Position numbers and translations under genes: made by a program
Part shown: positions 1,899 through 58,700 of the stretch, in pieces
Position numbering within the stretch: the first letter of the stretch is position 1
Layout: each line of letters opens with the position of its first letter
Source of the DNA: Eledone cirrhosa
Taxonomy: Eukaryota
DNA length: 64,000 nucleotides
Reading direction: 5' to 3'
NCBI GenBank assembly: GCA_964016885.1
Contig: OZ024740.1
Span: 275,962,001 to 276,026,000, forward strand
Notes under the pieces: generated by a model
The model's input: the letters and a program-made list of their open reading frames with translations, nothing else
Databases searched by the model: none
What the model was told of the DNA's origin: nothing

Positions 1899-1929
<31 letters not shown>

Positions 1930-1933
<4 letters not shown>

Positions 1934-2029
1934 ATAATAAATTTGAAGACTAAAATCCAGTTTCAGAAGATCCCGTTAAGGGTGAAAGCAGCGATTCTTT
2001 GCTTAAACTTTAATCTGTAATTTTAATAA

Positions 2030-2035
<6 letters not shown>
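1930..2035 (+). mobile_element. Family E pLTR-like fragment with variant-core hammerhead (1959-2009)
   Basis: AGTTT-CAGAAGA-TCCCGTTAAGGGT-GAAA-GCA..TGC-TT-AAACT followed by AATAAA; six copies in the window. Confidence 0.65.
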
Positions 2036-8574: not shown

Positions 8575-8690
8575 TATATTTATTAAAATAACAGATTAAA
8601 GTTTAAGCAAAGAATCACTGCTTTCACCCTTAACAGGATCTTCTGAAACTCTTTGGATTTTAGTCTTCAAATTTATTATCATTACTATAT
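8575..8690 (-). mobile_element. Family E fragment (variant hammerhead 8600-8650)
   Basis: Reverse complement of 1930-2035, within (TA)n. Confidence 0.65.
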
Positions 8691-10170: not shown

Positions 10171-11378
10171 GTAGGAGGTGAGTTTTATTGTAGCACAATA
10201 AAGCAATGCAAATATCGGATAAGTAGCACTATACAGTTTATAGGACTGGAGTATAAATAATATTAGATCAAAAGATGGTTAAAAGAGTTCCAAGTATTTT
10301 ATTATGCGCATTTCAAAAACAAATATCATCATGGGATGATATCTGCGTTCTCATCAAATAAAATAGGGAAACATGATATGAAGCTTAAAAAACACTTGTG
10401 AGCAGTGAAGTGTTAAATTAACATATTCAAAAATAAAGTAAGATGGATATATGAGATTGGGAAAAAATGAGAGGGGGGGGGGGGTAGGAAAAGGTAATGA
10501 AGAGGAAGAAAGAAAATAAAGGATGGTGGGGGAGGAGTATAAGAAGGAAGGATGAGAGAGGAGGAGAAATGAGTGATAGAGAGAGAGAAATAGCCTTTAC
10601 AACTGAGAAAACATTGTCTCACAGAGAGAAATTAAAAAACCGTTGAAAGATAATAGATAATTTAAAAAGATTTTGAAATTAAAAGTTAATGAGGTTTATG
10701 GATGTTGATGTTTATGATTAAAGAAAAAGGAATTAGGAATTGTATTAATTTAGGTTTATGTATTGAAGGGTTTAATAATATGTGCGAAAAAAAGGGAGAA
10801 TTTATTAATATGTATTATTAAAATAAAAATATTAATGATATTAAGGATATAATGTGAAAGAAGGAGAAGAATAAATGAGTTATGAACTTAGAGGAATTAT
10901 TTAGGGTTTAATTTTGTTTTTATGTATTGTAATATGTAAAAGTAAATAGTAAGTTTAAAACAAGCACGGAAGGAGAGAAGAAAAAAGAGAATTTAAGGAA
11001 GAAAAAATATCTAACGTCAAAAAGTATATATACTTACAAAATTTTTCTAATGGTAATATTATTATATATTAAAAAATATATAGTTTCTATGGTCAATAAT
11101 GTGAGGAAAAATGGAAATGAGAAAATGCTGTAGTGAGTAATAATATGAATTGAGAGTAATTGGGAAGTAAAGGTTACAGATTAAAGATTAGAAATTAAAA
11201 AAGAAAAAAGGAAGAAAGGAAAAAGGATAAAAAGAAGAAAGATAGGGGATCACAACGACATAGAGTGAGTAAATTGTATAATATAATATACTGAAATAAG
11301 GTAGAAAGATGGGTATATTTGTAAAAGATATAAAAACCTTTGAGAAAAGAAGATTTTAAACTACTAGGTGTTGAGATA

Positions 11379-11730
11379 TTAGCTGTATACTTTATGGAAT
11401 GTTCTATGGGATTTATGCAAGCAGAGCGAAAATAAATCCGTACGTCTATTTATTATAGAATTAAAATTAGATATAATGGTAAATTTCTCGGCTAGGAAGA
11501 GATTACATGTTCTGGATAGGGAGGAATTCAGGTAAGGAAAGGTGTAGCAAATCTTTCTCCAAGAGATGTTATAGTTAATATTTTTGTCTTTTAAGGACCA
11601 TATGAGTTCTGAGAGTGCCGTGTTAGTTCTTTTAAGGTAGTATTTAAAAGACGATTTGTGATTATAAAATCTTGCTTTAAAGGAAGTGGAAGTGGAACCG
11701 AAATAGGTAAAAGAATTAGTACCAGTTATA
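11379..11730 (-). pseudogene. Penelope-type GIY-YIG endonuclease C-terminal remnant
   Basis: TYFGSTSTSFKARFYNHKSSF...TALSELIWSLK...CNLFLAEK..INRRTDLFSLCLH; the N-terminal part of listed ORF 11379-11831 comes from the inverted pLTR. Confidence 0.85.
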
Positions 11731-12147
11731 ACCTTTTTTTCGCACATATTATTAAACCCTTCAATACATAAATCTAAATTAATACTATTCCTAATTCCTT
11801 TTTCATAAACATCAACATCCATAAACCTCATTAACTTTTAATTTCAAAATCTTTTTAAATTATCTATTATCTTCCAACGGTTTTTTAATTTCTCTCTGTG
11901 AGACAATGTTTTCTCAGTTGTAAAGGCTATTTCTCTCTCTCTATCACTCATTTCTCCTCCTCTCTTCTCCTTCCTTCTTATACTCCTCCCCCACCATCCT
12001 TTATTTTCTTTCTTCCTCTTCCTTACCTTTTCCTACCCCCCTCTCATTTTTTCCCAATTTCATATATCCATCTTACTTTTTTTTTAATATGTTGATTTAA
12101 AACTTCACTGCTCACAAGTGGTTTTTAAGCTTCATATCATGTCTCCC

Positions 12148-12218
12148 TATTTTATCTGATGAGAACGCAGATATCATCCCATGATGATATTTGTTTTTGA
12201 AATGCGCATAATAAAATA
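12148..12218 (+). ncRNA. Type I hammerhead ribozyme motif (inverted twin at 10295-10365 has C3U)
   Basis: TATTTTAT-CTGATGA-GAACGCAGATATCATC-CCAT-GATGATATTTGTTTTT-GAAA-TGCGCA-TA-ATAAAATA. Confidence 0.8.
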
Positions 12219-12686
12219 CTTGGAACTCTTTTAACCATCTTTTGATCTTATATATATATATATATATATGCAAAAGTTCTATTTAAATTGTTGGGATACA
12301 ACAAGCAAATATTTTATAACTGATATAAAGCACTCAACAAGTATATGATTATTAACATTTCTAATTTTATTTATTCATTTCATCTCAATTGTTAAGTTAA
12401 CTCAACAAGATATGACTTAGAGTTTTCGTTCTCTCCCCTTCTCTCTGTCTCCTCTCTCTCTATATATCTTTCTCTCTCTGTTGTTTTGGTATCTCTCTCT
12501 CTTTTCTCTCTTTTTTTCTTTCTTTTTTTCTTTCTCGCTTTTTCTCTCTCTCCTTCTTTTTCTTTATAAATATCCAATACTAATAATAATATAAGTAAAC
12601 AACTCCACTATCCGGGAGCTTCCAACAGTAATGGTTGCATTTTTTAAGGGTATGTCAATATTTATTTATAAAACTGATCTATATTA

Positions 12687-12751
12687 TATTTTGTCTGATG
12701 AAAGCACGCCATAATTTAACTTGGTGTCCTTGAAATATGTATAATGAAATA
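12687..12751 (+). ncRNA. Type I hammerhead motif in repeat 12270-12790; homologue at 35605-35669 (-) in repeat 35475-35830
   Basis: TATTTTGT-CTGATGA-AAGCACGCCA-loop-TGGTGTCCTT-GAAA-TATGTA-TA-ATGAAATA. Confidence 0.75.
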
Positions 12752-26699: not shown

Positions 26700-27283
26700 G
26701 CTGATTGGATCTAGCTTTCGAAACGGCCGGAGCTCAGTCGTCGGGGGTCGTGACTCTTTTCATATTACCCACTCTACTACCCTAAGTATTGAGTACTCTG
26801 GTGTGTTATGGTCCACCTGGTACCTTACCACACCCTCTTTGTTATATACACAAAACGCCAGCATCAACAGTTTTCCAAGAAATATCAAAATGAATGGACC
26901 TGTTATTTTTATCTAAAGACATTTTTTTTCCAATTCCACCCCGCCCGTCCCTTCAATCTGTCTTATTTTTCATTCTTTCTCTTGATGAAGGACTAGCGTC
27001 CGAAATGTTAAGACCTTCTTCCTGCTATTTCAAGCGTTAACCTAGTATATTCCTTCCATATACTGTACGGATTGTGTTGTTATTTCTGTTTACCTTTTAC
27101 ATACATACATACACATACATATCTGAGTTTCAGAAGATCCCGTTAAGGGTGAAAGCAGCGATTCTTTGCTTGAACTTTAATCTGTTATTTTAATAAATAT
27201 TTGCTCTACGGTTCTTATGTATTTGATATATATTTATCCTTATCGAGCCCTCTTTGGATTTTAGTCTTCAAATTTATTATTAT

Positions 27284-27290
<7 letters not shown>
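26700..27290 (+). mobile_element. Cluster of pLTR-like cassettes: family A (26700-26845), family D (26850-27100, HHR 26978-27013), family E (27126-27290)
   Basis: Direct homology to other copies in the window. Confidence 0.7.
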
Positions 27291-37499: not shown

Positions 37500-38047
<548 letters not shown>

Positions 38048-42995: not shown

Positions 42996-42999
<4 letters not shown>

Positions 43000-44095
43000 A
43001 TAATAATAATAAATTTGAAGACTAAAATCCAAAGAGGGCTCGATAAGGATAAATATATATCAAATATATAAGAACCGTAGAGCAAATATTTATTAAAATA
43101 ACAGATTAAAGTTTAAGCAAAGAATCGTTGCTTTCACCCTTAATGGGATCTTATGAAACTAACAAAGTCAATCTGTAAACGCAGAAGTTGATATTTCAAA
43201 AATCGTTGCAACCAAGACAGGAAGAAGATACTTTGGTTCGTGGAAACGTTCCCTGGCAAAGAACGTGAAAAAACGAATATAATACGTCATTAATAGGAGC
43301 GGGGAAAAACAATTACACGCAAAGACAGAACCACGTTATGGTATAAAAGAAGTCGTAGACTAATGTTCTCTTAGATGGTTCATAGAGACGTTCTCTGGCA
43401 ATGAACGGAAAACACGAAGATAATACGTCATATGTGGAGCGTGGAGAACAAAGCACGCAAAGACAAAACCACGTAAATGGTATAGCTGGAGTCGTAGAAT
43501 AAATTCTAACTAGGAAACCGAATGATTCTCCGCTTCAGAGTTAAGAATAAAGTAAATAAAATACAATACAGAGGTAATAGAAATTAAATAAATGCATACA
43601 CGCATCCAAATACGTACATACACAAGCATACGCGTAAACACTCGCCATAGGTATACAAAACCACGCACATATAAACTTGTGTGTGTGTGTGTGTGCGTGT
43701 ATACAAAAAAGTAATAAATAAGCGTATATAAATAAATAAATACGTATATAACAAGCGCACACACATACCAACAGGTAAATACACAAATGTTCGGAGACGT
43801 AAGTCAACCAAAACATGAAGTACACATATACACACACCCAACGTGGTTCTGTCTTTGCGTGTAATTGTTTTTCACCGCTGCTATTAATGACGTATTATAT
43901 TCGTTTTTTACCATTCTTTGCCAGGGAACGTTTCCACGAACCAAAGTATCGTCTTCCTGTCTTCCTCCGGCTGCAACGTTTTTTTAAATATCCACTTCTG
44001 CGTTCACAGATTGACTTTGTTAGTTTCAGAAGATCCCGTTAAGGGTGAAAGCAGCGATTCTTTGCTTAAACTTTTATCTGTTATTTTAATAAATA
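42996..44095. mobile_element. Family E element with ~255-bp inverted arms, each carrying a variant hammerhead
   Basis: ~43085-43338 inverted against ~43838-44095; HHR-like 43110-43160 (-) and 44022-44072 (+). Confidence 0.8.
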
Positions 44096-44238
44096 TATAT
44101 ATATATATATATAAATATATATACACATATATATGTATATATATGTATATATATATATATGTACATACATTCATACATACATATATATATATGTACATAC
44201 ATACATACATATATATATATATATACATATATATATAC

Positions 44239-44849: not shown

Positions 44850-45060
44850 ACATGAATGGACCTGTTATTTTTATCTAAAGATATTTTTTCCAATTCCATC
44901 TTGCGCGTCCCCTCAATCTATTTCATTTCTCATTCTTTCTTTTGATGAAGGACTAGCGTCCGAAACGTTAAGACCCTCTTCCTGCTATATCATGCGTTAA
45001 CCTACTATGTACCTTCCATATACTCTACCGATTGTGTTGTTATTTCTGTTTACCTTTTAC
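44850..45060 (+). mobile_element. Family D pLTR-like cassette with minimal hammerhead (44938-44973)
   Basis: TTGATGA-A-GGAC-TAGC-GTCC-GAAA-CG-TT-AAGA. Confidence 0.7.
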
Positions 45061-56694: not shown

Positions 56695-58700
56695 CTTGGT
56701 GTGTAGCTTCCAGAGGTCCCAGAAACCTACTGAATACTTTTATCTAATCAACTCGAGGTCGTCCAGGTTAGTCTTCAAATTTATTATTATTACTATATAT
56801 ATATAGTAGCAGCTGAAAATGAACACAGAAAAACAGTTACATAAAACAGACAGACAAATGTGTCTCTACTTCATCAGCCGCCTTGCTGGCATGCAACTTC
56901 TCGCATTAAAGTGGAATTGCATTTATAATGGCAGTTTGCGCAACTGATTCGAAAGCAGCTATGTTAGTAAAATGTATGTGAGACAATGAGAAAACAAAGA
57001 ACGGGCAGGAAAGAATACGGGTATCATTTGACAAAAACAATGAAAAAATTATTTAAAATATTACGAGTAGAAATAATTAAACTATATATTTATCGTGTAA
57101 AATGCGCAATATGTTAAAACTGGAAAGATTTTTTTAAATTAGACTTTCGCCAAAAGAATATGAATTCTATTGCATCGAAGTTATAATGATTCCCAGAAGC
57201 TGACTGAAGAGAAAGGTCTGTCAATTTTTTCCGTTGTATTTGTCTTGTACGTCCCCACATTTTTTTTTATTCATATTCGATATGGCCATCGCTACGCGGA
57301 TCTTTTTAACATCTATCTAAAAATGACATTACGCTGCCCACAATCCATCTTCCTTTTTTTCCTTCCTTTCATGTACGTCTACTTTTTCTCCCTTTCTTTT
57401 TTTTATTGCCATCTCTCTCCTTCAAAGGACAGCTGGTCGCTGAGAATTCCCTTGTCCGGAATTCGCAAGTTATAGATTTATCATTAATCGATAATCAGCT
57501 GATTCTCCACGAAATTTGAAATAGTACTGTACCAGCTTAGATGTGTATTTTTGTACTCCGGCGGATTTGTGTGTGCTAAGCTAGGAGGATACTGGCTTCA
57601 TCACTCGATATCACATGATTTTTTAGTATTTGAATAGCTTGTAGCCTTAGAATGTGACCTTATCAAATGAACGCCTCAAAAGACTAATAATATTAGGTCG
57701 AGAGAGTTGCATACATGCCAACTCTGCAAAACATTGTAAGTCACTTGCAGGTCTAAAAATCCATATTCCTTTGCAATACCTATATGACTGATGTCGTTTG
57801 ATAAAGACACTCAATCATTGGGTGGCTAAACGACTAAAGTCTGTCTCGAGCTCAAAAGCTCATCAGGTAGGTACTTATCCCGGTTTCCCTGGCGTGAAGT
57901 GACTGAGAGTACAAGACTCACCACTGGACAAGACGTCAATCCATCACAGGATTAAACCCCTCTCTGTTGCTAGTACTTATTTTCAGCTGAGTATCCTGGA
58001 GCAACATGAAATGAAGTAGTTTGCTCAAGAACACAACACACAACCCAGTCCAGGAATCTCACTTACTACATTATTATTCAACACCCTTCCCACTAGGTCA
58101 CACACCTGTGGGGTGGCTGCTATCATATACATGTATATTGGAATTCCACATAGTATTCTTCTTTTAGATTCTTCTGATAAGTTATTCAACAACCTGGAGC
58201 AATGATAAAAGACACTTGTTCAGGTTACTATACTGATGGATTGAGTTCAGTACCACGTGATTGCAAAACAAACTTTCTAACTACACTGACATGCATGTTG
58301 AGAATTTCATTTGTTGCTAAAGATGGATCACGCACATTTTGAAGAATAATCTAAGTGCAAGTAATAAAATACCCCTAAAAAAAAAGAAAAAAGATTATCA
58401 GAAAGCGTAAAATCTCTTAGGGATTTCAGTGAATTGAAAATGCTAACAGAACATTAGAGATTAGAAAGAAAAAAAAAGGAAGAAAAATGAAAGGAGAGAA
58501 AAGAAAAGGATGAAAAAGGAATAAATACAAAGGTAGAATAACAAACAGTATTAAACTATAATGAAAAATTATTAGATTCTAAGTAAAAGATATGAAATGA
58601 AAACAGAAAAATACCACAAAACAAAAGTGGCGAAGAAAAATGAATCAGAAAAATATGGAAAAGTGATCATTATTATCATCATCATCATCATCATTATTAC

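Follow-up and report, generated by a model that had tools for sequence, protein, structure and literature searches.

A family-wide A4 core in the hammerhead of a Hydra-like Penelope-type retrotransposon of Eledone cirrhosa, with copies that start at stem I

Hammerhead-fold motifs with A in place of the normally invariant U at core position 4 recur in the genome of Eledone cirrhosa. They are the pseudo-LTR (pLTR) hammerhead of an autonomous, Hydra-like Penelope-type retrotransposon, and A4 is a real, derived and family-wide core variant in an element of known kind. New here is that many copies have their 5′ end, mostly with an extra G, on the base that opens stem I. We favour, with rather more confidence than doubt, the reading that the motif sits at the capped 5′ end of the element RNA as an attenuated hammerhead, with A4 fixed in the master, the fold kept, and spread by way of uncut RNA. 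The window is the whole stretch of DNA that was analysed, 64,000 nt of the forward strand (GCA_964016885.1, OZ024740.1:275,962,001-276,026,000). Published work is cited from excerpts of the papers named.

A first-pass annotation of the window had listed six motifs, and all are present: 1959, 27126, 37873 and 44022 on the plus strand, 8600 and 43110 on the minus strand. Each has A at core position 4, and the copy at 43110 has the further change at G5 that was claimed for one of them. Stems I, II and III, described there as kept, do pair in all six copies, although three show a single wobble change: 8600 in stem II, and 27126 and 37873 one each in the 3′ strand of stem I. By the standard numbering, the core runs C3 A4 G5 A6 A7 G8 A9, U10.1/U11.1, G12 A13 A14, A15.1-U16.1 and U17. 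Stem I has 5 bp, the 3-bp stem II is closed by a U-U pair, and stem III has 5 bp, its fifth pair being a G-U beyond the four given earlier. The layout is that of a type I hammerhead, with three helices round the core and the ends in stem I. The other core bases (C3, G5, A6, G8, A9, G12-A14, A15.1-U16.1, H17) are the majority state in young and old subfamilies alike; the invariant U4 of the CUGA turn is absent. No match to the Rfam hammerhead models was found among the 150 of 185 window matches listed, nor among all 63 for an intact copy.

The first motif (1959..2009, plus strand) has its core at 1964-1970, A4 at 1965 and its predicted scissile bond between 2004 and 2005. This copy starts precisely at the first base of stem I. 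To its left lies an inverted short arm (1929..1959, minus), formed by element tail from +82 to +112 relative to the cleavage site and then (TA)n; to its right, element sequence (2010..2032, plus) continues to a short 3′ end at about +27, again followed by (TA)n. The 8600 insertion consists of a copy that spans the stretch between the opening base of stem I and the short 3′ end (8576..8650, minus; motif 8600-8650) and an inverted tail arm (8649..8688, plus). The copy at 27125..27289 (plus; motif 27126-27176) runs from the first base of stem I, at 27126, to the long 3′ end at +116, and has an extra G at 27125, a putative cap signature. At 37655..37945 (plus; motif 37873-37923) lies an older, 5′-truncated pLTR copy of 84% identity. 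The last two motifs are in a single inverted insertion: its left arm (42998..43840, minus) contains 3′ UTR/pLTR sequence, the motif at 43110-43160 with the changed G5 and the long tail, and its right arm (43840..44099, plus) contains the motif at 44022-44072. The six motifs therefore represent five insertion events. In the 44022 copy a distal extension of stem I can be formed between about 44006-44014 and 44073-44081. A tail-only fragment of the element (+88 to +116), without the motif, is found at 56768..56796 (plus).

Long copies of the element have the motif in both terminal repeats, 3,243 nt apart, flanking one ORF, and several of them have an open frame of 709 amino acids. The protein contains RWR, DKT, YRDD (a reverse-transcriptase motif), CNCRNRADC (a CxCx5C linker) and AYIGLT (GIY-YIG-like), with CDLC (CxxC) and CKH (CxH) in its C-terminal part; CCHH is absent, judged by eye. 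Copies sit in (TA)n and show pLTRs, a tail and inverted arms. Pfam and PDB searches with the element protein gave no significant match; atlas look-alikes at 0.96-0.97 have GIY-YIG or RVT_1 on part of their members. Elements of the Hydra clade likewise have a single ORF with a C-terminal GIY-YIG and the motifs RW(R/K), DKT, CxCx5C, CxxC and CxH, target (TA)n, have pLTRs with inverted 5′-truncated arms, and encode type I hammerheads, often with U10.1/U11.1 and U17 (PMC8557442). Unlike the Hydra hammerheads of File S2 in that paper, which all have U4, the present motif has A4 and a longer stem III loop, and the element unit of 3.24 kb compares with generally less than 3 kb for the Hydra families listed there. 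The element is filed as Hydra-like on its protein motifs; our tree is of sequences from the E. cirrhosa genome only. The element is not Hydra-1_Obim, from which it differs in motif and in N-terminal protein sequence. A non-autonomous retrozyme was also considered and is ruled out: the motif lies in an ORF-bearing element, and its copies are dispersed or inverted, not short tandem repeats. Among intact-ORF copies, L168, L169 and L173 start within 4 nt of one another, about 130 nt past the cleavage site; this clustering may be mere selection for a full ORF.

Exact matches to a 22-nt pattern that includes A4 number 22,207 in the genome (3.0 Gb), against none for its backwards control, so the recurrence of the motif is not due to chance. 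When A4 in this pattern is replaced by any of the other three bases, the total is 250 exact matches. Among the first 100 of these listed, T, G and C are found 36, 35 and 29 times (counted by eye), a split that looks like decay; U4 is thus estimated at about 90 exact matches against 22,207 for A4. Samples drawn in other ways agree. A4 is present in 121 of 122 copies with native upstream sequence, chosen irrespective of position 4, in every motif printed for copies found through the endonuclease protein (a core-blind search), and in every motif of the intact-ORF copies, at both ends where both are present. Old subfamilies were found with a pattern from the 3′ half of the motif (210 matches, 70 loci fetched); 33 of their copies retain the 5′ half of stem I, and position 4 in these is A in 30, C in one, T in one and a gap in one. 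Contig sets X1, X4, X5 (very shallow) and X6 show no other letter at position 4 at a 2% threshold. The proposal that A4 was already in the propagating master is borne out by these counts, and the genome-wide consensus, which had been put forward as the check, is A and not CUGAAGA.

A hidden canonical subfamily was sought with a loose canonical-core pattern and is rejected on the matches read. The pattern has 1,274 matches; 30 were read (by eye), and in none of them is the native stem I present. They comprise 23 palindromic junctions with position 4 at the centre, six other junctions just 5′ of the core and one member of another family. The symmetry axis of the palindromic junctions lies at position 4, and the T there is consequently the complement of the A in the other arm. 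Exact palindromes of this type number 669 genome-wide. Copies with T and a stem-I-like start lie at a junction in 8 of 13 cases, versus 3 of 16 for copies with G or C (by eye). The majority of seeming U4 copies are inversion junctions, palindromes with their axis at position 4, and they swell any naive U4 count. Hammerhead searches keyed to the canonical core miss the A4 family.

Related families in the same genome (35-52% protein identity) have U4 wherever a motif was found, from which it follows that A4 is derived. The nearest of them has U4 together with a U3-A8 swap; its placement has support 84/87 in a 15-row endonuclease tree. In this family (about 52% protein identity; L375:3450-3555, and L330 near 1650-1750 on the minus strand) stem II is long and stem III has 5 bp. 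A canonical-core hammerhead at L377:2440-2485 belongs to a more distant Hydra-like family; its short stem II and 5-nt loop are much like those of the A4 family, making it a natural U4 comparator. The window also holds an inverted insertion of another Hydra-like element (10300-10365 and 11397-11735 on the minus strand, 12148-12225 on the plus strand), with an endonuclease remnant of 39% identity and a pair of hammerheads, of which one is canonical and the other altered at C3. Other repeat families contribute hammerhead-like motifs near 12695 (plus), 35661 (minus), 61631 (plus) and 45402 (minus) and at 44941-44980 (plus); most of these have canonical cores, and in the last of them position 3 is occupied by U.

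Three of the six window copies start exactly at the first base of stem I, and this end recurs genome-wide. The native base just before stem I is T. Exact matches with another base there number 2,734, and G is that base in 56 of the first 100 listed; at a control position, just before A4, there are 1,006 such matches and G in 12 of the first 100 listed. The estimated number of G-preceded ends is about 1,500 at the stem I start versus 120 at the control. Thirty stem-I-start loci were read, of which 28 are junctions and two are point changes. For 10 of the 30 the inverted arm is a possible source of the base before stem I; in 18, three pairs of which overlap or are duplicates, it is explained by neither native sequence nor inverted arm, and in 14 of these 18 it is G. 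The inverted arm could supply the G in 5 of the 19 G junctions, and at several junctions both arms stop at the first A of stem I, each with a G. In LINE-1 and SVA an untemplated 5′ G is the signature of a copied m7G cap (PMC4859970). The site at the stem I start reads TTAGTT in young and TCAGTT in old subfamilies of the present element. Both match the initiator consensus. The 5′-end pile-up, the extra G and the initiator-like site together lead us to place a putative capped RNA polymerase II start on the opening base of stem I; going by genomic copy ends, the capped RNA of the element likely begins there. None of the seven long copies that cross the 5′ motif ends at this start, in a small sample chosen for long ORFs. 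Sequence depth shows a step at the stem I start, of about 2-fold in contig set X1 and about 20-fold in X4, figures that were not used as evidence. In a canonical-core family 16 of 30 5′ ends gather in a similar way at an initiator-like ACAGTT, which precedes the cleavage site by about 73 nt. That family (L305-L334) has a palindromic stem III and 3,120 exact tail matches, and its 5′ ends are often head-to-head palindromes.

The sequence at the core, with TTTCAG, matches the splice-acceptor and start-site consensus motifs. A4 could on this ground have been fixed as a 3′ splice acceptor or as a second transcription start within the core, an idea that is largely refuted and that we consider highly implausible. 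The element does splice introns in its 3′ UTR/pLTR, as seen from GT-AG joints in contigs and from intron-less genomic copies (ungapped estimates were used solely to spot spliced copies), and the Penelope intron of Drosophila virilis terminates at the 5′ end of helix I (PMC4209133). The acceptor in use, however, is about 100 nt upstream of the motif. A pattern joining either of the two known donor exons to either AG of the motif has 35 matches; none of the 20 read is spliced, and the other 15 are without the exact donor-exon letters. A second start is opposed by the control position before A4, where, among the same first 100 matches, G shows no excess. At the intron loci (L062:8090-8872, L135 near 4880 and L153 near 4925) at least two donors are joined to one acceptor; the introns are kept in most genomic copies, and a small share is spliced. 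The pLTR also has tandem units of about 140 bp, each with a terminal acceptor-like TTGCCAG (window 43234-43502; L062:8590-8880). In the use of a TATA-less internal pLTR promoter with an initiator, and in its partly retained introns, D. virilis Penelope resembles the present element (PMC2377424). In Penelope 46 bp separate the start from a 75-bp intron, which runs up to helix I, whereas here the putative start is helix I itself and the acceptor lies well upstream.

The 3′ ends of the element fall at two sites, about 29 and 95-116 nt past the scissile bond. This is as expected from internal priming; two internal priming sites 3′ of the hammerhead define the tail of the Anolis Poseidon element PAc (PMC11167929). 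Among 30 copies selected by their tails, 25 reach the scissile bond and none of the 25 ends there (upper 95% bound 11%). Among 30 long copies none begins at the bond and seven cross it. No insertion scar at the bond was found in 122 copies. Since copies run from the putative cap to the tail across the scissile bond, their templates were likely capped and uncut. The first-pass annotation had offered two explanations, a tolerated natural core or spread without cleavage: spread from uncut RNA has gained indirect support, and the two are not mutually exclusive. The canonical-core family has 0 of 29 ends at its own cleavage site, and the absence of such ends does not, for that reason, show A4 to be dead. 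Copy ends were accordingly set aside as proof of a dead ribozyme, being non-discriminating: the canonical control and the Anolis element, in which both strands are extended and no reads end at the cleavage site (PMC11167929), behave alike.

The pattern of change within the motif bears on whether the fold still matters. Young subfamilies have seven recurrent changes in the 54 nt upstream and none in the 51-nt motif (p=0.013), which disposes of the objection, raised beforehand, that the stems might be conserved no better than their flank. Old subfamilies differ in loop II, in loop III, in the tail and sometimes at N7. With the 3′ half of old copies set aside, since the search pattern had fixed it, recurrent changes between old and young affect 5 of the 6 free positions and 2 of the 22 in core or stems (p=0.001). 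Two of these seven, one free and one stem, may be due to CpG decay. Both stem changes keep G-U pairing. As judged from aligned copies, A4 has outlived several masters, the conservation pattern respects the fold, and the hammerhead fold is probably still selected. One could hold instead that the motif is a dead remnant in which A4 hitch-hiked in the master, conserved solely because it overlaps promoter and priming signals. We think this unlikely. It would fit the position of the motif at +1 to +51 of the putative transcript, where the internal promoters of Penelope-type elements sit (PMC2377424), the multiplication of Naiad elements without canonical hammerheads (PMC8557442), and the dispensability of cleavage in vitro (PMC11167929). 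It fits poorly with the identity of the changing positions, which are the ones left unconstrained in a hammerhead (N7, loops II and III, the stem-I bulge) and not a random subset, and with the G-U pairing retained in both stem changes.

A4 likely slows self-cleavage strongly, to judge from published mutants of the CUGA turn, from the contact made by U4 and from a predicted misfold. Single and double mutants of the turn have low activity, the C3-G8 swap excepted (PMC9901934), and U4 contacts the A6-N7 phosphate (PMC3088659). Our literature searches, of incomplete coverage, found no measured rate for U4A. In folding calculations a pair between A4 and U11.1 is possible, and a predicted misfold in which G12-A14 are buried rises from 0.05 to 0.53 when A4 is present in the 51-nt form, the effect being smaller in longer constructs (0.10 vs 0.01, and 0.32 vs 0.02). 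The hammerhead fold can be formed at 2-4 kcal/mol above the predicted minimum. Folding z-scores of the motif are not significant. A 9-bp distal stem I with a 7-nt bulge is predicted, from pairing alone, to be formable only in read-through RNA; RNA from the putative start is without it.

A4 might nevertheless be a tolerated variant that gives useful cleavage in vivo, by means of the distal stem I or the element protein, with only the uncut fraction being retrotransposed. Several observations lean this way. Change is seen at N7 and in loop II, whereas the other core bases and the stems stay the same from one subfamily to the next; a monomer would have a sufficiently stable stem III, and the distal stem I can form. 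The Anolis hammerhead cuts only with its protein added (PMC11167929), a viroid with a natural U4C core stays infectious although its hammerhead cuts much more slowly in vitro (PMC3088659), and the canonical-core family too is without ends at its cleavage site. We nonetheless rate this reading as rather doubtful, given the low activity of CUGA-turn mutants in saturation mutagenesis (PMC9901934), the lack of a visible compensating change in the core, the U4 of every Hydra hammerhead in File S2 (PMC8557442), the missing distal stem in RNA from the putative start and the misfold that A4 is predicted to favour. Some of the points in its favour also count against the attenuated hammerhead that we prefer: a slow core can suffice in vivo, as in the U4C viroid, and the retention of every other catalytic base across subfamilies fits a working ribozyme equally.

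The attenuated hammerhead would operate as follows. RNA polymerase II would start at the initiator-like TCAGTT/TTAGTT, whose A is the first base of stem I. Primed by the element protein at two internal sites (about 29 and 95-116 nt past the scissile bond), reverse transcription would pass through the uncut motif and copy the cap. Two such cDNAs would often be joined head to head, giving palindromic insertions. A slower core would cost little and may help, because cleavage would remove a capped 46-nt leader from the mRNA. What would persist is the fold, either as a ribozyme that cuts slowly, perhaps with help from a protein, or as a structure that binds protein and overlaps the promoter. The host element, and the way the motif overlaps the putative transcription start, go beyond what the first-pass annotation had proposed.

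A bolder version, which we put forward only tentatively, is that, in a very successful retrotransposon lineage, a hammerhead set at the capped 5′ end of the mRNA was later detuned, its fold being retained as a protein-gated switch or purely as an RNP handle, with protection of the cap as the result. A4 would both break the U-turn and pair with U11.1, locking the catalytic GAA away and preserving the cap for translation and reverse transcription. If that were true, the cap-to-tail mini-copies would be a genome-wide fossil record of internal priming on a capped, uncut 5′ leader.

Natural hammerheads with other core variants include viroid U4C, U3-A8, A6C and U15.1-A16.1 (PMC3088659, PMC4209133). 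Like A4 these are rare departures from the consensus, some with low but real activity. U4A is not named among natural variants in the excerpts of those two papers; here it is fixed in more than 22,000 copies and several subfamilies. Unlike the A4 element, PAc has a canonical core, one that cleaves with its protein added (PMC11167929). Its catalytic hammerhead mutants are unimpaired in insertion in vitro (PMC11167929). A capped start at stem I, which the copy ends suggest for the A4 element, is not reported for PAc in the excerpts of that paper. Our literature searches found no report of an A4 variant or of a capped start at stem I, within a coverage incomplete enough that a prior report is possible.

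Penelope-like elements have hammerheads in most clades, though cleavage is dispensable in the sole in vitro system. The A4 family is a natural experiment in which a normally invariant base was replaced and the replacement kept through several rounds of amplification, and related families with canonical cores coexist with it in one genome. The copy ends place a likely capped start at stem I and speak for priming in vivo from within uncut RNA. At stake is whether A4 defines a new tolerated core or whether a ribozyme fold has been retained for another job.
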